From NCBI GenBank assembly GCA_903916595.1, contig CAIWXI010000049.1, forward strand, positions 23,396 through 87,395: DNA of 64,000 nt, given 5' to 3'. How positions within the stretch are numbered: position 1 is the first letter of the stretch; every line of letters starts with the position of its first letter. Source of the stretch: an uncultured Bacteroidales bacterium (GTDB lineage: Bacteria > Bacteroidota > Bacteroidia > Bacteroidales > FEN-979). A program made the translations under genes and the position numbers. This document shows positions 1,937 through 36,650 of this stretch, piece by piece. The notes under the pieces were generated by a model that was not told the DNA's origin, did no database searches, and saw nothing but the letters and a program-made list of their open reading frames with translations.

Positions 1937-2299
1937 GTGTATCCCCTCGTCTATCATAAAACCCTTACCACCGAAAAGTGGAACTCATATCCCCGCTTTC
2001 AGCAAATCCTGATGATTGCAAATGAGATGAACCGTGCGCAGAATGCACTGCTGAAAAACGACACTCAAAACGCCATACATGCCTGGGAACGCGCATTTGA
2101 ACTGACAGATCTTACAATCAACGACTCCAGTAATGTCAGATATTTAAAGGAGCTCCTTCGCTTCAGGGAATTATCGGGGGAATTGTTCCTGAACCCCGAT
2201 GCCGATTTCAGCAAGGCACTTATGAATGCACTGATAAGCCTGGACCCGAAAGCCTGGAATATGTTGAGATATCAGATATCTGCCATCAGTAATCAGTAG
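1937..2299 (+). CDS. hypothetical protein
   Basis: 120-aa ORF with a GTG start 4 nt after the heptamer array. The last ~10 codons (RYQISAISNQ) are encoded by AGATATC/TGCCATC repeat DNA. It overlaps the mutY stop convergently by 7 nt. Confidence 0.45.
   Translation: MYPLVYHKTLTTEKWNSYPRFQQILMIANEMNRAQNALLKNDTQNAIHAWERAFELTDLTINDSSNVRYLKELLRFRELSGELFLNPDADFSKALMNALISLDPKAWNMLRYQISAISNQ
2267..2294. repeat. four phased heptamers AGATATC AGATATC TGCCATC AGTAATC inside the 3' end of ORF 1937..2299
   Basis: Read directly. Same units and orientation as 23458-23499. Confidence 0.85.
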
Positions 2300-3420
2300 T
2301 CCTCCAGATACTTTTCGATGATCCTGTGGACCGGCAAATCATTGAACTTGCTCCGAAGGATATATGTACCGAATTTTTCGGAGGGCTTTTCGATTTCGAG
2401 GGTGTAAAACCTGGCGGTGATCTTTAGATGGCTCAGAAGATGACTGACTTGCGTAGATTGTCCCAGTACCTTTACCTTGCTCGCCCCGAAAAACTGTCGC
2501 CATTCGGGGGTGTTCATCAGCCTTTGCAGGTTTACTGTTTTTGAAGTTTCAATCAGCGGAAATTCGTACAAGCCCTTCCAGATATCATTTCCTGTACGTT
2601 TCCTGAAAAATAATCCCTTTTTCCCTCTTACGCTAATCACCAGGTAATTGAAATACCTGGGCTTCAGAGGTTGCTGCTGTTTTTTTAGCGGAAGTTTTTC
2701 GACCATCCCGAATTTCAGCGCGTAACAGCTGTCGTTGAAAATGCAGTTATTGCACTGCGGATTACGTGGCACGCAATATGTTGCGCCGAATTCGATCATT
2801 GCCTGGTTGAACGTGCCGGATGTCGGATGCGGGATATGGGATACGGGATGCAAGATATCCTGCATCCTGCATCCTGCATCTTGTAACCTGCATCCTGCAT
2901 CCTGAATCTGTTCCATCAAACCATTCAGCACCTCCATGATCTCCTTCTTCACAGCAGCCTCATCAACCGGCCCGGTGATCCCGAAATGGCGGGTTATGAA
3001 ACGAATCACATTTCCATCCATTACAGGGTGGGGAAGACCGAAGCAGACTGAAGCAATCGCTGCAGCAGTGTAATCTCCAATCCCCTTTAATGCCCGGAGT
3101 CTGTCATAGGTTTCGGGAAATATTCCGTTATACTTTTCAACGATGTCATTTGCCGTGGAATGCAGATTGCGTGCCCTCGAATAATAACCCAGCCCCTGCC
3201 ATTGTTTCAACACCTCATCCTCAGTGGCCACGGCGAGGTCCTGAACCGTGGGAAAGACATCAGCGAACTTGTTATAATAAGGAACTCCCTGTTCAATGCG
3301 GGTTTGCTGCATAATGATCTCCGAAAGCCAGATCAGATAGGGATCGGTCGTCCGCCGAAAAGGAAAATCCCGGGCATTTGCCTTGTACCATTTAAAAAGC
3401 TTGTTCAGGAAATCATTCAT
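2293..3420 (-). CDS. mutY: A/G-specific adenine DNA glycosylase MutY, carrying a ~31-codon in-frame repeat insertion
   Basis: HhH-GPD motifs (LIWLSEIIMQQTRIEQG, LGYYSRARNLH, LKGIGDYTAAAIASVCFG), Fe-S loop CVPRNPQCNNCIFNDSC and a C-terminal NUDIX-like domain. Start moved to ATG 3420 (MNDFLNKLFKWY) because the 29 upstream codons of the track ORF are GTGNNNC repeat DNA and a -7 box lies at 3428-3435. Confidence 0.85.
   Translation of the reverse strand: MNDFLNKLFKWYKANARDFPFRRTTDPYLIWLSEIIMQQTRIEQGVPYYNKFADVFPTVQDLAVATEDEVLKQWQGLGYYSRARNLHSTANDIVEKYNGIFPETYDRLRALKGIGDYTAAAIASVCFGLPHPVMDGNVIRFITRHFGITGPVDEAAVKKEIMEVLNGLMEQIQDAGCRLQDAGCRMQDILHPVSHIPHPTSGTFNQAMIEFGATYCVPRNPQCNNCIFNDSCYALKFGMVEKLPLKKQQQPLKPRYFNYLVISVRGKKGLFFRKRTGNDIWKGLYEFPLIETSKTVNLQRLMNTPEWRQFFGASKVKVLGQSTQVSHLLSHLKITARFYTLEIEKPSEKFGTYILRSKFNDLPVHRIIEKYLEDY
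2816..2908. repeat. 13 phased heptamers forming an imperfect palindrome (GGATG-type arm / CCTGCAT-type arm) centred on GATATC 2854-2859, in frame inside mutY
   Basis: CCGGATG TCGGATG CGGGATA TGGGATA CGGGATG CAAGATA | TCCTGCA TCCTGCA TCCTGCA TCTTGTA ACCTGCA TCCTGCA TCCTGAA. Confidence 0.9.
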
Positions 3421-3668: not shown

Positions 3669-3959
3669 ATGACAAAAGCAGAAATTGTAGCAGAAATTGC
3701 TAACAAGACCGGAATCGAGAAGGTCGCTGTCCAGGCTTCGGTCGAAGCCTTTATGGAAACCATTAAAACTTCCATGATAACCGGCCAGAATGTTTATCTT
3801 AGGGGATTCGGCAGTTTCATTATCAAGAAACGCGCAGAGAAAACAGGAAGAAATATTTCAAAGAACACCACCTTGATTATTCCCGCCCACAACATTCCTT
3901 CTTTCAAACCTGCCAAGACCTTTGTGACCAAGGTGAAAAGTCACGTCAAGGCTAAGTAA
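3669..3959 (+). CDS. hup: HU family DNA-binding protein
   Basis: 96 aa. MTKAEIVAEIANKTGI...VYLRGFGSF...RNISKNTTLIIPAHNIPSFKPAK is the HU/IHF fold signature including the beta-arm. Confidence 0.9.
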   Translation: MTKAEIVAEIANKTGIEKVAVQASVEAFMETIKTSMITGQNVYLRGFGSFIIKKRAEKTGRNISKNTTLIIPAHNIPSFKPAKTFVTKVKSHVKAK

Positions 3960-3978
3960 GCAAATTTATAAACAGGAT

Positions 3979-5717: not shown

Positions 5718-5725
5718 TTTAATGG

Positions 5726-5790
5726 ACGATGTACAATGTACGATGTACGATTAAAGAGTCCTTCGTACATCGTACATCGTAAATCGTACA
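5726..5790. repeat. inverted heptamer arrays (ACGATGT ACAATGT ACGATGT ACGA / TCGTACA TCGTACA TCGTAAA TCGTACA) giving a ~25-bp hairpin with a 12-nt loop
   Basis: Read directly. Occupies the rng-trpS spacer and ends 4 nt before the trpS ATG. Confidence 0.9.
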
Positions 5791-5794
5791 TTCC

Positions 5795-6796
5795 ATGATC
5801 ATGCAAACCGTAGTTAGCGGAATCCGCCCCACCGGCAACCTACATCTGGGCAATTACTTCGGCGCCCTGAAGAACTTCGTAAGGATGCAGCAGGAGAATA
5901 ACTGCTATTTCTTTATTGCGGATTATCACTCCCTTACCACCCATCCTACTCCCGCCGATCTTCACGGAAATGTGAAAACCGTGCTGGCTGAATTCCTCGC
6001 TGCCGGACTCGACCCTGAAAAAGCCACCATATATATACAGAGCGACCTTCCCGAAACAGCTGAGCTCTACCTGCTGCTGAATATGAACGCTTACATCGGC
6101 GAGCTGGAACGCTGTACTTCTTTCAAAGACAAGATACGCACCCAGCCGCAGAATGTGAATGCCGGATTGCTTACCTATCCTACGCTGATGGCTGCGGATA
6201 TCATTATCCACAGGGCACACAAGGTACCCGTGGGCAAGGACCAGGAACAACATCTCGAGATGACCCGTACCTTTGCGAACCGTTTTAACCGCATGTACAA
6301 GGTGGAGTTCTTCCCTGAGCCACAGGCCTTTAACTTCGGCGAAGAGCTTGTCAAAATACCCGGACTGGATGGTTCCCTTAAGATGTCCAAGTCAGACAAT
6401 GAAAATTCAGCGATCTTTTTAGCTGATGCCCCGGAAGTCATCCGCAAGAAAGTAATGAGGGCAACAACCGATACAGGCCCTACCGAACCAGATTCGCCCA
6501 AGCCACAGGCAGTTCAGAACCTGTTCACCCTGATGGAGGATTTTTCGACCAAAGAAGCATACGATCATTTCAACGGATTGTACAACAGCTGCCAGATCCG
6601 TTACGGGGATATGAAAAAGCAACTGGCCGAGGATATCATTAAATTCACAACCCCCATCCGCGAGGAGATCCTCAGGATCAAATCCGACGAAGCTTACATC
6701 AGTAAGGTCGCCCGGCTCGGAGCTGAAAAAGCACATGCCAGCGCCTCGCAAACCATCTCTGAGGTTCGGGAAATCATAGGGTTCAGAAGCTTTTGA
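5795..6796 (+). CDS. trpS: tryptophan--tRNA ligase
   Basis: Class I HIGH-type motif (TGNLHLGNY), KMSKS motif and ~330 aa length. Confidence 0.9.
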   Translation: MIMQTVVSGIRPTGNLHLGNYFGALKNFVRMQQENNCYFFIADYHSLTTHPTPADLHGNVKTVLAEFLAAGLDPEKATIYIQSDLPETAELYLLLNMNAYIGELERCTSFKDKIRTQPQNVNAGLLTYPTLMAADIIIHRAHKVPVGKDQEQHLEMTRTFANRFNRMYKVEFFPEPQAFNFGEELVKIPGLDGSLKMSKSDNENSAIFLADAPEVIRKKVMRATTDTGPTEPDSPKPQAVQNLFTLMEDFSTKEAYDHFNGLYNSCQIRYGDMKKQLAEDIIKFTTPIREEILRIKSDEAYISKVARLGAEKAHASASQTISEVREIIGFRSF

Positions 6797-6799
6797 TTA

Positions 6800-6833
6800 T
6801 CGAATATTGATCAAGGAATATTGAATGTTGAAG
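6800..6833. repeat. GAATATTGA repeated at 14-nt spacing (…GAATATTGATCAAG GAATATTGAATGTTGAAG)
   Basis: Read directly. Related, in the opposite orientation, to 37780-37820. Confidence 0.8.
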
Positions 6834-6843
6834 TTAGTGAACC

Positions 6844-8430
6844 ATGAAACACCTGAAACTTCGGCTTCTGCTGCTTTCCCTCGCTTCCGGATTGCTCTTT
6901 TCCCTTGCCTGGCCTGAGAAAGGAGTTCCGGTCTTGTTGTTTATTGCTTTTGTCCCTTTACTGCGGATGGAGGAGCTTATCAGCTCAAACCGTGAGAAAT
7001 TTAACCGGTTCTCGGTGTTTTTCTGGTCGTATCCCGGTTTCTTCCTGTGGAATTTGCTTACTACCTGGTGGATAGTGAATTCAACCGGACAGGGCGCTGC
7101 CATGGCCGTTTTGCTCAACGCCATGTTCATGAGTATTGTGTTCGCCTTTTTCAGCGGAACAAAGCGCAGGCTGAACAGCAGACCCGCCGGATACCTGGCC
7201 CTGGTCTGTTACTGGGTGATGTTTGAATACCTTCACCTGAACTGGGACCTGAACTGGCCCTGGCTTAACCTCGGAAACGGCTTTGCTTCCTATTCTCACT
7301 GGGTACAGTGGTACGAATATACCGGGGCGTTCGGGGGAACGGTGTGGGTGCTGGTAGCGAATGTGATGATTTTTTCCATTTTAAATGGTGAAATGGTGAA
7401 TCGCCATTTCACCATTTTACTTACTATCCTTCTCCCCATCGCCTTCTCCTACCTCCTCTACTACACTTATAAAGAGAAGGCATGGCCCGTCAACGCTGTG
7501 ATTGTTCAGCCCAACATCGATCCGTATTCCGAGCAGTATGTTCTGCCGCCACAGCAGGTTTTAGGAAGGATCATGAGTATCGCGGGAACCGCTCTTGATT
7601 CCTCGACCAATATCCTGGTGACTCCCGAATCGGCGCTTCAGCAGGAAATGTGGGAGAATGAGTTGGAAACTTTTGAGAGTATTAAACTGGCGAGACAGAT
7701 TATAACAAAGTATCCTGGGCTGAATATTATTCTCGGGGGGACTACTTTTTACGCTTTCAGACCGGACGAGAAAATTCCGCATACCGCCCGGAAGTTCACT
7801 CAGGAGGACCGCTGGTACAACAGGTATAACGCGGCGATCATGGTGAACAGCCATCCGCAGATACAGACCTATCATAAATCAAAACTCACGCCGGGAGTTG
7901 AGATTCTGCCCTCATATAACGGATTCAAATGGCTTGAAAAATATGCTATCGACCTCGGCGGAATTGTCGGAAGCCTCGGCACCGACTCGGTTCGTAAGGT
8001 TCTTCAGGTTGTGAGCATGCCCCCGGTGGCGGCTTGTATCTGCTATGAATCGATTTTCGGGGAATTTTTTGCCGAATTCGTCAGGAATGGCGCCCAGGTG
8101 ATGTGTATTATCACCAACGACGGATGGTGGGGTAATACCGCCGGGCACAGACAGCATTTTTCTTTTGCCCATCTGCGTGCTATCGAGACCCGCCGAAGTA
8201 TTCTCCGATCGGCCAATACCGGGATTTCGGCCGTGATCGACCAAAGGGGCGATGCGCATCAGCAGACGAAATACTGGGTCCCGGCGGTGATCAAAACCAC
8301 TGTTAATGCAAATGATAAAATAACTTTCTACACCGCACATGGCGATTACATCGCGTTCTGGCTTTCGTGGCTCGGCGGATTGCTTTACCTTGGGTCTCTG
8401 GGAGTATGGGTCATGAGGAAACGTATCTGA
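6844..8430 (+). CDS. lnt: apolipoprotein N-acyltransferase
   Basis: Polytopic N-terminal half plus a CN-hydrolase domain with catalytic-Cys context VAACICYESIFGEF. Contains a short in-frame octamer hairpin insert (7383-7417). Confidence 0.85.
   Translation: MKHLKLRLLLLSLASGLLFSLAWPEKGVPVLLFIAFVPLLRMEELISSNREKFNRFSVFFWSYPGFFLWNLLTTWWIVNSTGQGAAMAVLLNAMFMSIVFAFFSGTKRRLNSRPAGYLALVCYWVMFEYLHLNWDLNWPWLNLGNGFASYSHWVQWYEYTGAFGGTVWVLVANVMIFSILNGEMVNRHFTILLTILLPIAFSYLLYYTYKEKAWPVNAVIVQPNIDPYSEQYVLPPQQVLGRIMSIAGTALDSSTNILVTPESALQQEMWENELETFESIKLARQIITKYPGLNIILGGTTFYAFRPDEKIPHTARKFTQEDRWYNRYNAAIMVNSHPQIQTYHKSKLTPGVEILPSYNGFKWLEKYAIDLGGIVGSLGTDSVRKVLQVVSMPPVAACICYESIFGEFFAEFVRNGAQVMCIITNDGWWGNTAGHRQHFSFAHLRAIETRRSILRSANTGISAVIDQRGDAHQQTKYWVPAVIKTTVNANDKITFYTAHGDYIAFWLSWLGGLLYLGSLGVWVMRKRI
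7383..7417. repeat. octamer hairpin AAATGGTGAAATGGTGAA-tcgc-CATTTCACCATTT in frame inside lnt
   Basis: Read directly. Encodes LNGEMVNRHFTIL. Confidence 0.9.
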
Positions 8431-9458: not shown

Positions 9459-9782
9459 CTTCTGCTCTTACTTTGCAGCTCTCAGCTACGGAACTATTAC
9501 GACCCACCATCGGCTTGCTTCCTAAGCCAGGTCAGCCGTTCGGTACTATGTTTGTCTCTTTTATAATGGGATAACCACTTAGTGAAGTCTAATTGAAGCG
9601 AAACATCTCACACAAGCTGCCTTGGGTGTTAAGGAGCGAATTACCCTTTAGAGTAAAATCTGGTAAATCATTCATGAGTGACGCAAACACCCCAGCAGCG
9701 GTGTGAGGATGTGAGCTAATGTAGGTCGCAGTAGTTTCGTAGCTGAGGGGTGCAGGGTCAGCGATGAAGCAGTAATGCAGAG
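9459..9782 (+). ncRNA. orphan highly structured element: candidate ncRNA, or alternatively a MITE-like element with ~24-bp terminal inverted repeats
   Basis: No ORF, lying between two convergent stops. 9481-9504 pairs with 9724-9747 (24 positions: 21 Watson-Crick, 2 G-U, 1 A-C mismatch on the + strand). A nested helix pairs 9604-9630 with 9686-9711, and there is a small hairpin GGCTT-GCTTCCT-AAGCC at ~9512-9528. Strand was assigned only from the G-U count. Confidence 0.4.
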
Positions 9783-11150: not shown

Positions 11151-11241
11151 AAAAGTATGTGTTTAAACAGGGTGTTACGACATCCGCCGAAAGAAAATAT
11201 AAACAAGATTTTGTTGGGAAATATTTTATCCCTATTTCCAT

Positions 11242-11249
11242 TATCTTTG
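11242..11249 (+). promoter_or_regulatory. -7 box TAtcTTTG for polA
   Basis: 15 nt upstream of the in-frame TTG 11265. Confidence 0.5.
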
Positions 11250-11264
11250 CATAAAACCACTAAC

Positions 11265-14159
11265 TTGCCAGAAAACAAACTCTTCCTCCTCGATGCAATG
11301 GCCCTGATCTACCGGGCCTACTACGCGTTCAAGAACAACCCCAGGGTGAGTTCCAAAGGAGTAAACACCTCTGCTGCTTTCGGATTTGCCAATACTCTTT
11401 TTGATGTACTGCGGAAGGAAAAGCCCACGCATATAGGTGTTGCCTTTGATACCATCGCACCTACCGTGCGCCACGAAGGGTACGAATTGTACAAAGCTCA
11501 CCGACAGGAAACCCCGGAAGATATAATTTTATCAATTCCTCTTATTCACGAACTTCTTCACGCTTTTAGAATTCCCGTTCTTTTTGTTGATGGCTTTGAG
11601 GCGGATGACGTAATTGGTACCCTCGCCAGGCAGGCTGAAACTGCGGGATGGACTACTTATATGATGACTTCGGATAAGGACTTCGGACAACTTGTAAGTG
11701 CTACCACCCTGATTTACAAGCCCGGAAAGTTCGGCGGAGATGTTGAGATCATGGGCGTGAAGGAAGTCTGCGAGAAGTTCGGGATCAGCAATCCGCTTCA
11801 GGTCATCGATATGCTTGGTTTATGGGGAGATGCGTCGGATAATATACCTGGTATTCCCGGCGTGGGCGAAGTCACGGCCCGCAAACTCCTGGCCGAATTC
11901 GGCTCGGTGGAAAATCTTGTTGAACACCCAGAGAAGGTTGCCAACGAAAAACTGCGTCAGAAAGTTATTGAATTCAAAGATCAGGCCCTGATGTCGAAAA
12001 GCCTGGCAACTATCATTCTTGATGTTCCCATCGCCTTCGAACCGGATAAACTGGTCGTGGAAGCACCCGATGAGCTGCGGCTGAAAAGGTTGTTTGATGA
12101 ACTAGAGTTTCGGGCGCTCGGGGAACGTGTTTTCAAATGGGCGGCAGGGATGCAGGATCCAGGATCCAGGATCCAGGATGCAGGATCCAAAATCTTACAT
12201 CCCGCATCTGACATCCCGGACCTTTTCTCCGACCTTGAATCTGCTTCCCCAATCCCTAATCCCCAGTACCCAGTCACCCAGTCACCCAGTCATCCTGCAT
12301 CCAGCATCCTGGATCACGACTCACGGATCACGGATCACGACTCACTTGCCACGATCTCTGACACTCCCCACACCTATGTTCTTGTCAACACACAGGAAGC
12401 CCGCCTTGACCTCATCCGCAGTCTTAAGAAATCAAAAACATTCTGCTTTGACACGGAAACTACGGGAATTGACCCTAACAACTCGGAACTGGTAGGGATG
12501 TCGTTTTCGGTGAAGCCGCATGAGGCATATTATATTCCTCTCCCCGAGAACTACCATGAGACTGAACTTATCGTCCAGGAGTTCAAGGATGTACTTGAAG
12601 ATCCCAAGATCGAAAAAGTGGGACAGAACATGAAGTTCGACATTGCGATCCTGAAATGGTACGGCATCGATGTTAAGGTTCCCATGTTCGACACTATGCT
12701 GGCGCATTACCTTTTGCAGCCCGACATGAGGCATAATATGGATTTCCTCTCGGAGATCTATCTGAAATACAAGCCGGTACCTATTGAATCCCTCATAGGA
12801 AAAAAGGGCGCGGGCCAGCTTAGCATGCGCACGGTTGATACTGATACAATTAAAGAATATGCTGCGGAGGATGCTGATGTGACTCTTCAGCTGAAAAATG
12901 TGTTCGAGCCTTTGCTGGCTGATAGTGATACCCGTAAACTGTTCGACGAGATAGAGATTCCGCTCATTCCTGTTCTTGCTTCTATGGAAAAGGAAGGTGT
13001 GCGGATAGATTCTTCGGTTTTGAACGAATATTCGGTGGAGCTTGAAAAAGAAGTACTTATAATTAAGGAAGAGATTTTCAGGGAAGCCGGAACAACGTTT
13101 AACATCTCTTCTCCAAAACAGCTGGGCGAAATCCTTTACGAACGGCTGAAGATCGTTGAAAAGCCCAGGCAGACCAAGACCAAGCAGAATTCAACGAGCG
13201 AAGATGTGCTGACTAAGCTTGAAGCAAAACATCCGATCATCAGCAAAATATTGGAATACCGGTCTTTGGCAAAATTGAAGTCGACGTATGTGGATGTGCT
13301 TCCATTGTTGGTAAGCCCCCGTGATAATCGCATTCATACATCGTATAACCAGGCGGTTGCGGCTACAGGCAGACTGAGCTCCAATAATCCAAACCTTCAG
13401 AACATCCCTATCCGCACAGAGAAAGGGCGTGAAATCCGCAAAGCGTTTGTGCCCAGGAATGATAATTATATCTTGCTGAGCGCCGACTATTCCCAGATCG
13501 AACTTCGCATCATCGCATCGATGAGCGGGGATAAAAACATGATGGAGGCCTTTAAAAATGGCGAGGACATCCACCAGGCGACGGCTGCCAAGATTTACGG
13601 CATGAAGCTTTCTGAGGTGAGCAAGGACATGCGCAGGAATGCCAAAATGGTGAACTTCGGGATTATATACGGAATTTCAGCATTTGGTTTGTCAGAACGT
13701 TCAGGCATGTCGCGAAAAGAAGCTGCGGATGTGATAAAACAGTACTTTGAACAATACCCCGGGATCAGGGAGTATATGGATAATACCATCGCTTTTGCCC
13801 GGGCTAACGGTTTTGTGGAAACCCTTATGAAACGCAGGCGTTACCTTAGGGATATCCATTCGGGCAATGCCAACGTTCGCGGATTTGCCGAACGAAACGC
13901 CATCAATGCACCGGTTCAGGGTACAGCGGCCGATATGATAAAGATTGCCATGATCAGGATTTTTCATAAGTTTGAAGAGCAAAAACTAAGGTCGCGGATG
14001 ATATTGCAGGTTCACGACGAACTTGTGTTTGATGTGCATAATTCTGAAGTTGAAGAAGTTAAAAATATAATTGAAATTGGAATGAAGAACGCGTTGCTGC
14101 TGGATGTACCTGTTGAGATTGACATGAATACAGGAGCGAACTGGTTGCTGGCGCATTAG
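11265..14159 (+). CDS. polA: DNA polymerase I; the inter-domain linker is built from heptamer/octamer repeat DNA
   Basis: 5' nuclease (KLFLLDAMALIYRAYYAF), 3'-5' exonuclease (FCFDTETTG), polymerase motifs A (LLSADYSQIELRI), B (RRNAKMVNFGIIYG) and C (QVHDELVF). Start proposed at the in-frame TTG 11265, 15 nt after a TAtcTTTG box. The track ATG at 11157 would leave only 6 nt for the divergent phoH-like promoter. Confidence 0.85.
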   Translation: MPENKLFLLDAMALIYRAYYAFKNNPRVSSKGVNTSAAFGFANTLFDVLRKEKPTHIGVAFDTIAPTVRHEGYELYKAHRQETPEDIILSIPLIHELLHAFRIPVLFVDGFEADDVIGTLARQAETAGWTTYMMTSDKDFGQLVSATTLIYKPGKFGGDVEIMGVKEVCEKFGISNPLQVIDMLGLWGDASDNIPGIPGVGEVTARKLLAEFGSVENLVEHPEKVANEKLRQKVIEFKDQALMSKSLATIILDVPIAFEPDKLVVEAPDELRLKRLFDELEFRALGERVFKWAAGMQDPGSRIQDAGSKILHPASDIPDLFSDLESASPIPNPQYPVTQSPSHPASSILDHDSRITDHDSLATISDTPHTYVLVNTQEARLDLIRSLKKSKTFCFDTETTGIDPNNSELVGMSFSVKPHEAYYIPLPENYHETELIVQEFKDVLEDPKIEKVGQNMKFDIAILKWYGIDVKVPMFDTMLAHYLLQPDMRHNMDFLSEIYLKYKPVPIESLIGKKGAGQLSMRTVDTDTIKEYAAEDADVTLQLKNVFEPLLADSDTRKLFDEIEIPLIPVLASMEKEGVRIDSSVLNEYSVELEKEVLIIKEEIFREAGTTFNISSPKQLGEILYERLKIVEKPRQTKTKQNSTSEDVLTKLEAKHPIISKILEYRSLAKLKSTYVDVLPLLVSPRDNRIHTSYNQAVAATGRLSSNNPNLQNIPIRTEKGREIRKAFVPRNDNYILLSADYSQIELRIIASMSGDKNMMEAFKNGEDIHQATAAKIYGMKLSEVSKDMRRNAKMVNFGIIYGISAFGLSERSGMSRKEAADVIKQYFEQYPGIREYMDNTIAFARANGFVETLMKRRRYLRDIHSGNANVRGFAERNAINAPVQGTAADMIKIAMIRIFHKFEEQKLRSRMILQVHDELVFDVHNSEVEEVKNIIEIGMKNALLLDVPVEIDMNTGANWLLAH
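12145..12218. repeat. about 10 phased heptamers: CAGGGAT GCAGGAT CCAGGAT x3 GCAGGAT, then polarity flip CTTACAT CCCGCAT CTGACAT; in frame in polA
   Basis: Read directly. Confidence 0.9.
12262..12345. repeat. mixed array: CCCAGTA (CCCAGTCA)x3 TCCTGCA TCCAGCA TCCTGGA TCACGAC TCACGGA TCACGGA TCACGAC; in frame in polA
   Basis: Read directly. Confidence 0.9.
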
Positions 14160-14288
14160 AAATGGTGAAATGGTGAAATGGTGAGAATTAATTGTAGAAA
14201 ATAAATGTAGGAATTTAATCTTCTTTTTATTTCACCATTTCACCATTTCACCATTTCACCATTTCACCATTTCACCATTTCACCATTT
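14160..14288. repeat. (AAATGGTG)x3 - 44-nt AT-rich spacer - (ATTTCACC)x7.5: unequal inverted octamer arrays
   Basis: Read directly. The left arm starts 1 nt after the polA stop and the right arm ends 12 nt before the ROK ATG. Confidence 0.95.
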
Positions 14289-34555: not shown

Positions 34556-34603
34556 AAATGGTGAAATGGTGAAATGGTGAAATGGTGAAATGGTGAAATG
34601 GTG
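34556..34603 (-). repeat. (ATTTCACC-phase) octamer x6 on the sense strand of the TPR gene, 22 nt upstream of its ATG
   Basis: The plus strand reads (AAATGGTG)x6. Confidence 0.95.
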
Positions 34604-34650: not shown

Positions 34651-34670
34651 AAATGGTGAAATGGTGAAAT
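34651..34670 (-). repeat. second octamer block x2.5, same orientation
   Basis: The plus strand reads AAATGGTGAAATGGTGAAAT. Lies 12 nt from the dut stop. Confidence 0.9.
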
Positions 34671-35150: not shown

Positions 35151-36650
35151 TCAATTGGAGACCTTTACCCCACCTGGCTTTTCAAGAAAAAAGGCCGTCA
35201 GCAGAAAAACAGAAAGCAAGCCGGTGTGAAGGAGGATGCGGGATGCGGGATGCGGGATATTGGTATAAACGCTGATCAGATAGAGCAGAAGTGCAAGGCC
35301 GGCATAGCCCGCTGCTTTCCAGATCCTGTATGGAACCGGATAATATTTCTGTCCCAAAAGGTAAGCCACGACCATCATACTTCCATAGCAGATGAATGTG
35401 GCCCAGGCCGATCCGACATAACCATGGAGGAGGTGGCCGGGGCCCAGGGGGATCCACCAGAAATTCAGTGACAAAGTGATAACTGCACCCATCAGCGAGA
35501 GCCAGGCTCCCCAGATGGTTTTCCCGGTAAGCTTGTACCAGATCGAAAGGTTGTAGTATATGCCCAGGAAAATGTTGGCGAACATCAGAACAGGGATGAC
35601 CTCTTTGCCAACCCAGTATTTCTTGTCGATGAGATGCAGGAAAACATCATCCAGAAAAAGCATGGTCACCAGGAAGGTTGTAAGGACCGCAATGATGAAA
35701 TAATCCATGATCCTGGCGTAAGTCTGGCCTGAATCTTTTTCTTTGGCATGGGCAAAAAAGAAAGGTTCAGCGGCAAAGCGATAGGCCTGAACAAACAAGG
35801 TGATCAGAATGGATATTTTGTAACAGGCGCTGTAAATCCCAACCTGGGCTTCGCTAAGATCGGTCGAAAGCGGCAGCAGGTATCTCAGCATCAGCCTGTC
35901 GAGGGTTTCATTGACCATCCCGGCAAGTCCGGCAAACAACAAGGGAAACGCGTAAACCAGCATACGCTTCCACAGTTCGGTGTGCATCTTCCACTTCATG
36001 TTCACGATCATTGGAACAACGAGGGCGAGGGTAATGAAACTGGCGGCGACGTTTGCAATGAACACGTATTCTAATTCCCAATCGGGACGGTAAATCAGTC
36101 GCAGCATAGCATGCAGGGAAGGGAAGCTGTTCCACAGATACGGGCAAAGCAGAATAAAAAACAGGGTCAGTCCTATATTCGTGAAGATGTTGATCATTTT
36201 AAGGGTAGCGAAGCGGCCTGCCTTATTCTGTGAGCGCAGCCTTGCAAAAGGGATGGCGACCAGGGCGTCGAGCCCGAGAATCCATGCAAACCAGATCACG
36301 TATTTTGACTGACCGGGGTAATCGATCCATCCGGCAATGGTTCCCGAAAAAATGCTTGCAAGGAATATGAATGAACCTGAAGTAATCAGCAGCGAAAGCA
36401 TACCGGTGCTGAACACACTGTCTTTGTTTTCTTCCTTCTCGCTGAACCGGAAAAAAGCCGTCTCCATTCCATACGTAATCACCACCATGAGGAAGGAGGC
36501 ATAGGCATAAAACACACTGATAGTTCCGTACTGTGCCGGAGAAAAGACCCTGGTTAGCAGAATGACCATCAGGTATTGCAGAAACCGGCCCAGGATCGTG
36601 GGTATTCCGTAGACAGCGGTTTGAGAGGCAAGACGTCTGATTGATGACAT
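35151..36650 (-). CDS. oligosaccharide flippase family (Wzx/MOP superfamily) membrane protein
   Basis: 499 aa with ~14 TM helices. The N-terminus (RLASQTAVYGIPTILGRFLQYLMVILLTRVF) is typical of polysaccharide-biosynthesis flippases. The C-terminal loop contains a (GATGCGG)3 repeat. Confidence 0.75.
   Translation of the reverse strand: MSSIRRLASQTAVYGIPTILGRFLQYLMVILLTRVFSPAQYGTISVFYAYASFLMVVITYGMETAFFRFSEKEENKDSVFSTGMLSLLITSGSFIFLASIFSGTIAGWIDYPGQSKYVIWFAWILGLDALVAIPFARLRSQNKAGRFATLKMINIFTNIGLTLFFILLCPYLWNSFPSLHAMLRLIYRPDWELEYVFIANVAASFITLALVVPMIVNMKWKMHTELWKRMLVYAFPLLFAGLAGMVNETLDRLMLRYLLPLSTDLSEAQVGIYSACYKISILITLFVQAYRFAAEPFFFAHAKEKDSGQTYARIMDYFIIAVLTTFLVTMLFLDDVFLHLIDKKYWVGKEVIPVLMFANIFLGIYYNLSIWYKLTGKTIWGAWLSLMGAVITLSLNFWWIPLGPGHLLHGYVGSAWATFICYGSMMVVAYLLGQKYYPVPYRIWKAAGYAGLALLLYLISVYTNIPHPASRILLHTGLLSVFLLTAFFLEKPGGVKVSN
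35232..35259. repeat. (GATGCGG)x3-4 in frame near the flippase C-terminus
   Basis: GGAGGATGCGGGATGCGGGATGCGGGATAT. Encodes ...NIPHPASRILLH... on the minus strand. Confidence 0.9.

Follow-up and report, generated by a model that had tools for sequence, protein, structure and literature searches.

In an uncultured Bacteroidales bacterium, the gene for DNA polymerase I (polA) carries, between its 5'-nuclease and its proofreading domains, a linker of which about 70% at the DNA level consists of short tandem arrays with a period of 7 or 8 nucleotides (nt), all of them read in frame. The gene lies on a stretch of 64,000 nt (contig CAIWXI010000049.1, positions 23,396 to 87,395), referred to here in its whole length as the window. 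The reading that probably accounts for these arrays is that they are hypermutable, are tolerated in unconstrained linkers and loops, and are filtered for reading frame and for units that contain no stop. The polA linker is a local case of a genome-wide and clade-wide repeat system, and not a special device of the enzyme.

The gene was identified as polA (11265..14159, plus strand) from its open reading frame (ORF), its homologues, of which 8000 were found at E <= 1e-50, and four Pfam domains that are all matched near full length in one polypeptide. These are the 5'-3' exonuclease (FEN) domains PF02739 and PF01367 (11277..12074, amino acids (aa) 41-306 of the 1000-aa ORF), the 3'-5' exonuclease domain PF01612 (12375..12917, aa 407-587) and the polymerase domain PF00476 (13017..14144, aa 621-996). 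The continuous ORF extends from an ATG at 11157 to 14159 and would encode 1000 aa. The TTG at 11265 is the likely start, judging from its agreement with the start annotated in NCBI homologues, and gives a 964-aa protein beginning with MPENKLFLLD.

Alignment and the AlphaFold2 model delimit a linker of 80 codons (12135..12374, K291-T370 of the 964-aa protein), within which the arrays were located by Tandem Repeats Finder. The first block comprises six copies of GGATSCA (12148..12189, period 7), translated as QDPGSRIQDAGS, and then a degenerate heptamer array at 12190..12218 (ATCTTAC ATCCCGC ATCTGAC ATCCCGG, or ATCYNRC; detected at 12192-12218 with period 14), which approximates the inverted complement of the GGATSCA array. 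A non-repeat island follows, encoding IPDLFSDLES (12213..12242) and recognised from the homologue alignment. Beyond it are a short TCCCCAA-type heptamer array of 2.9 copies (12246..12265, period 7), four copies of the octamer CCCAGTCA translated as YPVTQSPSH (12262..12292, period 8), a heptamer array ATCCTGC ATCCAGC ATCCTGG encoding HPASSIL (12286..12315; ATCCWGC units, detected at 12286-12309 with period 7 and at 12270-12315 with period 14), and 4.7 copies of ATCACGR / CTCACGR translated as DHDSRITDHDS (12313..12345, period 7). Peptides read in the polA frame further include IQDAGSK and ILHPASDIPDLFSDLESASPIPNPQYPVTQSPSHPASSILDHDSR. The linker ends with LATISDTPHT (12345..12374), which runs into the exonuclease domain; this segment and the island are the non-array parts of the linker, and both are conserved. 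An earlier note on this DNA had described the linker as two blocks of in-frame heptamer and octamer arrays (12145-12218 and 12262-12345), read in rotating frames and free of stops. The detected arrays match both blocks, the translation is as quoted there, and the polA frame contains no stop over 12124-12370. Over the same interval the +1 frame also has no stop, against about 4 expected, and the +2 frame has 4, every one of which falls outside the arrays.

At the protein level, an AlphaFold2 run on PolA with a 44-sequence alignment gave residues 299-358 a predicted local distance difference test (pLDDT) score of 30-40, thus below 50, and no secondary structure, as compared with 80-95 in the flanking domains and up to about 82 in the conserved linker end. 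The linker is therefore predicted to be an intrinsically disordered tether that joins the 5'-nuclease to the proofreading/polymerase part of the enzyme, which agrees with the disorder that the earlier note had expected a structure prediction to reveal.

The arrays are restricted to one lineage. The close set was an alignment of the 120 nearest homologues (66-95% identical), every one of which derives from a Bacteroidales or Bacteroidota metagenome-assembled genome (MAG); their linkers range from 33 to 144 aa (median 74), and the imperfect peptide repeats within them concentrate at periods of 7, 8, 14 and 16. The outgroup consisted of 74 PolA genes of other Bacteroidota, at most 63% identical, among the matches listed in a profile search of genome contigs. 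The linkers of these 74 measure 30-70 aa and contain no period-7 arrays, and 7/8-nt arrays are essentially absent around the genes (about 0 per 20-kb locus). Because these outgroup linkers are short and repeat-free, the window linker is repeat-derived and not ancestral, as had been proposed in the earlier note; no repeat-free relative with a homologous linker of the same length and sequence was found among the 74. On this comparison the arrays are additions made in one Bacteroidales clade, and they flank a short linear motif that is itself ancestral. Among relatives that do carry arrays, the orthologous polA linkers are built from unrelated units: (CATCMGC)n in L082, which has no DLF motif; (CGGGAAA)n and (ATCCAGNN)n in L083; (AAAAGCG)n, encoding EKRKAKSEI, and (ATTTCGCC)n in L084; and (AAAAGTC)n and (GCATCCA)x11 in L146, the latter encoding HPASSIQ.

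The conserved centre of the linker, along with the genome-wide and clade-wide extent of the repeats, had been overlooked in the earlier note. A Q-x-[D/S]-L-F motif is present mid-linker in at least 56 of the 74 outgroup proteins listed (nearly all), in variants such as QTDLFG, QLDLFG, QMDLFG and QFSLFG, and an xDLF[S/T] core is found in about 104 of 121 close homologues, which also keep the TPHT linker end. In some repeat-free linkers (L014, L021, L033 and L080) two DLF motifs stand a few residues apart, as in KQDLFSDPDLFS and QLDLFSQGDLFA. The published consensus for binding to the beta clamp is QL[S/D]LF, and a 2026 preprint describes a likely QLELF motif in Bacillus subtilis Pol I, the peptide of which binds DnaN, while alanine at motif position 1 abolished peptide binding in the published assays (bioRxiv 10.64898/2026.05.27.728225). 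The Bacteroidota motif is accordingly put forward as a candidate of the beta-clamp-binding type, whose binding is suggested by its resemblance to these peptides. Like QLELF of B. subtilis, it is a Q-x-[D/S]-L-F pentapeptide within a flexible part of a polymerase, predicted here to be disordered, and it is conserved across Bacteroidota PolA linkers. Unlike QLELF, the window's IPDLF lacks the glutamine: its motif peptide is ASDIPDLFSDLES, as against QTDLFG in a Q-containing relative, and the window's lineage has P or I at position 1. Clamp binding is uncertain in this lineage, both for the Q-less form itself and because some 13-17% of close homologues (about 17 of 121, for example P0003, P0047 and P0114) are without any DLF motif.

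Evidence for the mutability of the arrays comes from close strains, whose loci were obtained through protein-cluster and contig look-ups and which display the length polymorphism that the earlier note had proposed to look for. Over 13 kb, a syntenic strain (L001) is 97% identical to the window; arrays contain most of the indels that separate the two, and the remainder cluster in the intergenic interval 9464-9726. Intergenic arrays differ by 21, 14 and 16 nt, whereas in the coding arrays the difference is +42 nt both in block 1 of polA and in mutY, with an additional +9 / -12 rearrangement in polA block 2. Within the 90% protein cluster, the conspecific alleles of polA block 1 comprise the window type and forms longer by 14, 21 and 28 aa (+42, +63 and +84 nt), and the conspecific MutY alleles measure 375, 389 and 396 aa. 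As neither 7 nor 8 is a multiple of 3, only two kinds of variant would persist within the gene, one of them being net changes divisible by 3 that typically amount to three units (21 or 24 nt). In a sister species, the C-terminal array consists of octamers and has an identity of 0.93 at lag 24 as compared with 0.78 at lag 8, which is the signature of expansion by frame-neutral steps of three units.

Beyond polA, the same kind of array recurs throughout the window. Tandem Repeats Finder returned 54 rows, among which periods 7, 8 and 14 dominate, and a scan of periods 4-12 recovered arrays only at 7 (n=8) and 8 (n=5), with 0 in every shuffle. A simple detector found 21 arrays, about half of them in short intergenic stretches, in a window of which crude greedy ORF tiling assigns 94% to ORFs. 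Recurrent unit families include GCAGGAT, ACATCGT and AAATGGTG, and many units are singletons. The octamer AAATGGTG / CACCATTT forms arrays at no fewer than five sites in the 64 kb (355-381, 7383-7400, 14159-14288, 34556-34603 and 34651-34670), hence the repeat families are dispersed and not locus-specific. One of these sites, directly 3' of the polA stop codon (14159..14288), is an intergenic inverted pair composed of (GAAATGGT)x3.2, a 44-nt spacer and (ATTTCACC)x7.5. Arrays stand directly 3' of the polA stop in all five of the related genomes examined, with different units in each. A further intergenic inverted pair lies directly 3' of the stop of an RNase E/G gene (5722-5791). Neither of these two post-stop hairpins has a U-tract, canonical terminators and promoters were not enriched, and the arrays were not detected as such.

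Several other proteins are also hosts to in-frame arrays. In mutY (2296-3420, minus strand) a GCAGGAT / ATCCYGY pair at 2817..2908 encodes EQIQDAGCRLQDAGCRMQDILHPVSHIPHPTS and adds about 28 aa to a catalytic-domain loop; on the solved Geobacillus stearothermophilus MutY the insert falls between residues 170 and 172. In lnt (6844-8430) the array at 7383-7400, made of the octamer that also follows the polA stop, occupies a length-variable, array-derived loop between the N-terminal and CN-hydrolase domains. The lnt loop of L084 (1061-1118) has the same unit pair as the polA linker of that genome, a pair that recurs after its polA stop, and the unit of the L146 lnt loop (3947-3973) is at most one mismatch from the first array of its polA linker. 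Near the C-terminus of a polysaccharide-biosynthesis flippase-like ORF (35151-36650), 3.6 copies of GGATGCG on the minus strand (35234-35258) encode IPHPASRIL in frame. In a related MAG (L093, approximately 6900-7000, within the minus-strand ORF 5809-7392), a GCAGGAT-type array pair is read in frame as YRDTGYRIQDAGYRMQDPASCIPYP in a NuoCD-like protein, where it separates the Complex1_30kDa domain from the Complex1_49kDa domain. A search with a synthetic repeat peptide yielded only hypothetical proteins of 40-110 aa over intergenic arrays and no further host proteins. Dozens of Bacteroidota MAG hypothetical proteins of this size (P0121-P0208) are translations of arrays and probably spurious gene calls.

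A model may be proposed on this basis. It would begin with an ancestral Bacteroidota tether of 30-70 aa, repeat-free and with a Q-x-D/S-L-F motif at its centre. In one Bacteroidales clade, the genome is strewn with 7/8-nt arrays, mostly intergenic and often in inverted pairs able to form hairpins, and genome-specific unit families have come to fill the unconstrained DNA on either side of the motif. Gain and loss of units would occur most simply via replication slippage, and selection would remove variants that bear stops or whose net length is no multiple of three. What results is a Pol I with a longer and variable spacer, made of 7/8-residue peptide repeats in which P, S, G, D, Q and H are abundant, that surrounds a possibly weakened clamp-binding-type motif. 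However, a number of points weigh against this model. The near-neutrality of length changes is an assumption, and the out-of-frame alleles described below could be assembly errors. The glutamine that IPDLF lacks is the residue whose substitution by alanine abolished peptide binding, and about 13-17% of close homologues have no DLF motif. In addition, slippage in place fails to explain why unit families are common to the loci of one genome and not to orthologous loci, why polA and mutY have in common the composite (CAGGATS)n-ATCTTRCATCCCG, and why the motif has GGAT-type arrays on its upstream side and ATCC-type arrays on its downstream side.

The sharing of units within genomes can be expressed numerically: linker units were matched elsewhere in their own genome's locus in 11 of 19 cases, as compared with 6 of 76 in the loci of other genomes. 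Independent slippage does not predict such a difference, and therefore some copying or homogenisation between loci has probably taken place. Taken further, the same observations could reflect a lineage-specific trans or recombination process, for instance ectopic conversion among arrays or the template-directed addition of repeats, that rewrites 7/8-nt arrays with genome-specific units at many existing sites, those in essential genes included. This stronger proposal is regarded as unlikely. If it were true, orthologous sites such as the polA linker, the lnt loop and the spacer after polA would retain arrays whose unit is exchanged across the genome as a whole, and the dispersed micro-arrays would evolve in concert instead of by independent slippage.

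Another possibility, and a rather doubtful one, is that a discrete selfish palindromic element, akin to the Rickettsia palindromic elements (RPEs) or to miniature inverted-repeat transposable elements, was inserted in frame in polA, mutY and other genes and is tolerated because the sites it hits are surface-exposed, with tandem structure and changes in copy number arising secondarily. Block 1 of polA and the mutY insert do have the same two-arm composite, (CAGGATS)n followed by the 13-nt junction ATCTTRCATCCCG, a pattern that is matched 3 times in the window as compared with 0.29 expected; a conspecific contig also bears the composite at a third site, and other genomes have it both in frame and intergenically. 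Strong hairpins are formed by the mutY pair (z = -6.4) and by the two intergenic pairs, with z = -7.2 for the one that follows the RNase E/G gene and z = -9.7 for the one that follows polA, and the unit families are genome-specific and dispersed. However, the copies have no fixed length, no terminal inverted repeats and no target-site duplications; they consist purely of tandem units whose number varies in place, and many unrelated unit sequences coexist. A scan of metagenomes for the junction pattern gave 50 loci, of which only about 10 were real arrays, most being chance matches without periodicity. The complementary arms in polA, furthermore, flank the ancestral conserved motif on both sides, an arrangement that a single insertion cannot have produced. 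The polA arrays also fold weakly. The first block, which the earlier note had called an imperfect palindrome, is one to a marginal degree (z = -1.9, with 8 of 200 shuffles folding equally well), and the linker as a whole folds no better than shuffles (z = -0.57).

The likeness to RPEs suggested in that note stands in part. RPEs, each about 150 bp long, are discrete and lie in frame in protein-coding genes, each family being conserved in sequence and in peptide (PMC10969869). The present arrays resemble them in that repeat DNA occupies intergenic stretches as well as in-frame positions in housekeeping genes unrelated to one another, where the protein fold permits it, and its tolerance at permissive positions in polA, mutY, lnt and the NuoCD-like gene is alike in kind. 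They differ in having no fixed length, boundary or sequence, in being made of 7/8-nt units whose copies vary in place among strains, in the use of other units by relatives, and in the weak palindromy at polA. As no discrete conserved element is present, membership among the RPEs fails.

It is also conceivable, if improbable, that polA and mutY are contingency loci in which slippage by one unit gives rise to reversible mutator or repair-deficient subpopulations, a frameshift either uncoupling the 5'-nuclease from the polymerase or truncating MutY. The units are not multiples of 3 and lie within two DNA-repair genes, the +1 frame is open across the entire polA linker, and the unit GGATGCA provides in-frame ATG codons (P0220). 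Out-of-frame alleles, too, are present in contiguous contigs of independent assemblies. In L136 (1542-1816), two extra GGATCCA units add 14 nt and polA is called as 450 + 553 aa; in L135 (368-704), block 1 has gained 84 nt and block 2 has lost 8 nt, one CCCAGTCA unit being missing; and in L144 (2390-2499), mutY is short by one GCAGGAT unit (-7 nt) and is split into 205 + 168 aa. All three contigs come from MEGAHIT k141 assemblies under neighbouring European Nucleotide Archive accessions (ERZ273135xx). However, approximately 74 polA contigs are in frame as opposed to 3 with the 553-aa call typical of the frameshift, and this rarity fits mutation-selection balance. The downstream ORF of the frameshifted polA begins after the Exo I motif and thus loses part of the exonuclease fold, and arrays are also present in lnt and other genes unrelated to mutation rate. 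Several truncated calls, moreover, have a technical origin: P0240 for PolA and most of the truncated MutY calls, considered at one point as frameshift alleles, proved to be scaffold gaps of 100 N or contig ends inside arrays. Arrays in polA and mutY give rise to such gaps and contig ends in L137-L141 and L145, where they mimic split genes. Compared with established phase-variable contingency loci, the present arrays likewise place a hypermutable repeat with a unit that is not a multiple of 3 within an ORF and yield frameshifted alleles in natural samples, but they lie mid-gene in housekeeping repair and replication genes, not 5'-terminally in surface or restriction genes, and in-frame alleles overwhelmingly dominate.

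That the peptide repeats are themselves selected, to tune the length of the tether between active sites or as modules for binding or condensation, is thought very improbable. Long linkers are kept across the whole clade, their composition promotes disorder, and the arrays are symmetrical about the candidate clamp-binding motif, all of which would suit such a role. However, neither the sequence nor the length of the repeats is conserved even among strains of one species, relatives have unrelated units at this site, the same units are found in intergenic DNA and in unrelated proteins, and the repeat-free Bacteroidota of the listed outgroup manage with 30-70 aa.

Finally, a role at the nucleic-acid level, whether as a hairpin in mRNA or DNA that pauses translation or replication or as protein sites reading GGAT/ATCC at 7-bp spacing, can be largely discounted, for although a 24-nt inverted pair with 92% complementarity (12163-12186 and 12292-12315) brackets the central non-repeat segment, intergenic arrays right after stop codons are strong hairpins, and GAT or ATC is present in 55% of heptamer units as compared with 25% of background heptamers (window, L001, L005, L006 and L082-L084), the linker RNA is close to shuffles and block 1 marginal, so that RNA structure has no support as the main point of the linker, the units are wholly different between relatives, an Rfam search of the window matched only a tRNA and gave no match for the arrays, and the GAT core is far from universal. 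Many heptamer units embed 6-bp palindromes such as GGATCC and GATATC. A universal GAT/ATC core for the heptamers was considered and rejected, the enrichment being only two-fold.

With tolerated, hypermutable arrays as the preferred reading, the closest known kinds are the heptanucleotide simple-sequence repeats, or dispersed heptamer families, and the disorder-creating tandem repeats of Borgs. Heptanucleotide long simple sequence repeats (LSSR) in bacteria were treated by Mrazek et al. (2007), in so far as that work is summarised in PMC4679880, a source which also covers the cyanobacterial short tandemly repeated repetitive sequences (STRR) and TAACTGA repeats in Beggiatoaceae, Cyanobacteria and some Bacteroidetes; GGGAATC / GGGGAYT repeats have been described in Xanthomonas and Nostoc (PMC4692102). 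Orientations free of stops are occasionally translated at protein peripheries in such families (PMC4679880, PMC4692102). The present arrays resemble the LSSR and STRR families in their head-to-tail 7-nt units, which are over-represented and present at many loci per genome, in their mostly intergenic location, often beside start or stop codons, and in their variable copy number and restriction to a lineage. They differ in that several families of 7- and 8-nt units coexist, commonly as inverted pairs, and in that arrays run, clade-wide, through central parts of polA, mutY and lnt, all of them housekeeping genes, as the principal material of a linker. In Borgs, the unit of tandem repeats within ORFs is always divisible by three, and the resulting perfect amino-acid repeats create disordered regions (PMC9879509). 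Both systems are fast-evolving and genome-specific, are found between and within ORFs, and create or extend disordered regions; here, by contrast, the 7/8-nt units rotate the frame, frame neutrality requires steps of three units, and alleles out of frame are observed. A high density of genic repeats in Bacteroidota was noted, though not characterised, in a survey of short tandem repeats.

Repeats with a unit that is not a multiple of three can thus be the main material of a linker in core replication and repair enzymes, where nothing but selection for three-unit steps keeps them in frame. For annotation, they account for PolA, MutY and Lnt proteins of variable length, for spurious small hypothetical proteins, and for contig and scaffold breaks in MAGs. 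The natural allele series bears on how long and how arbitrary the tether of Pol I can be, as well as on clamp tethering through the DLF motif in Bacteroidota and on the breakage of essential genes by arrays. The genome-specific families common to several loci, for their part, point to an undescribed process that spreads or homogenises repeats in these bacteria.

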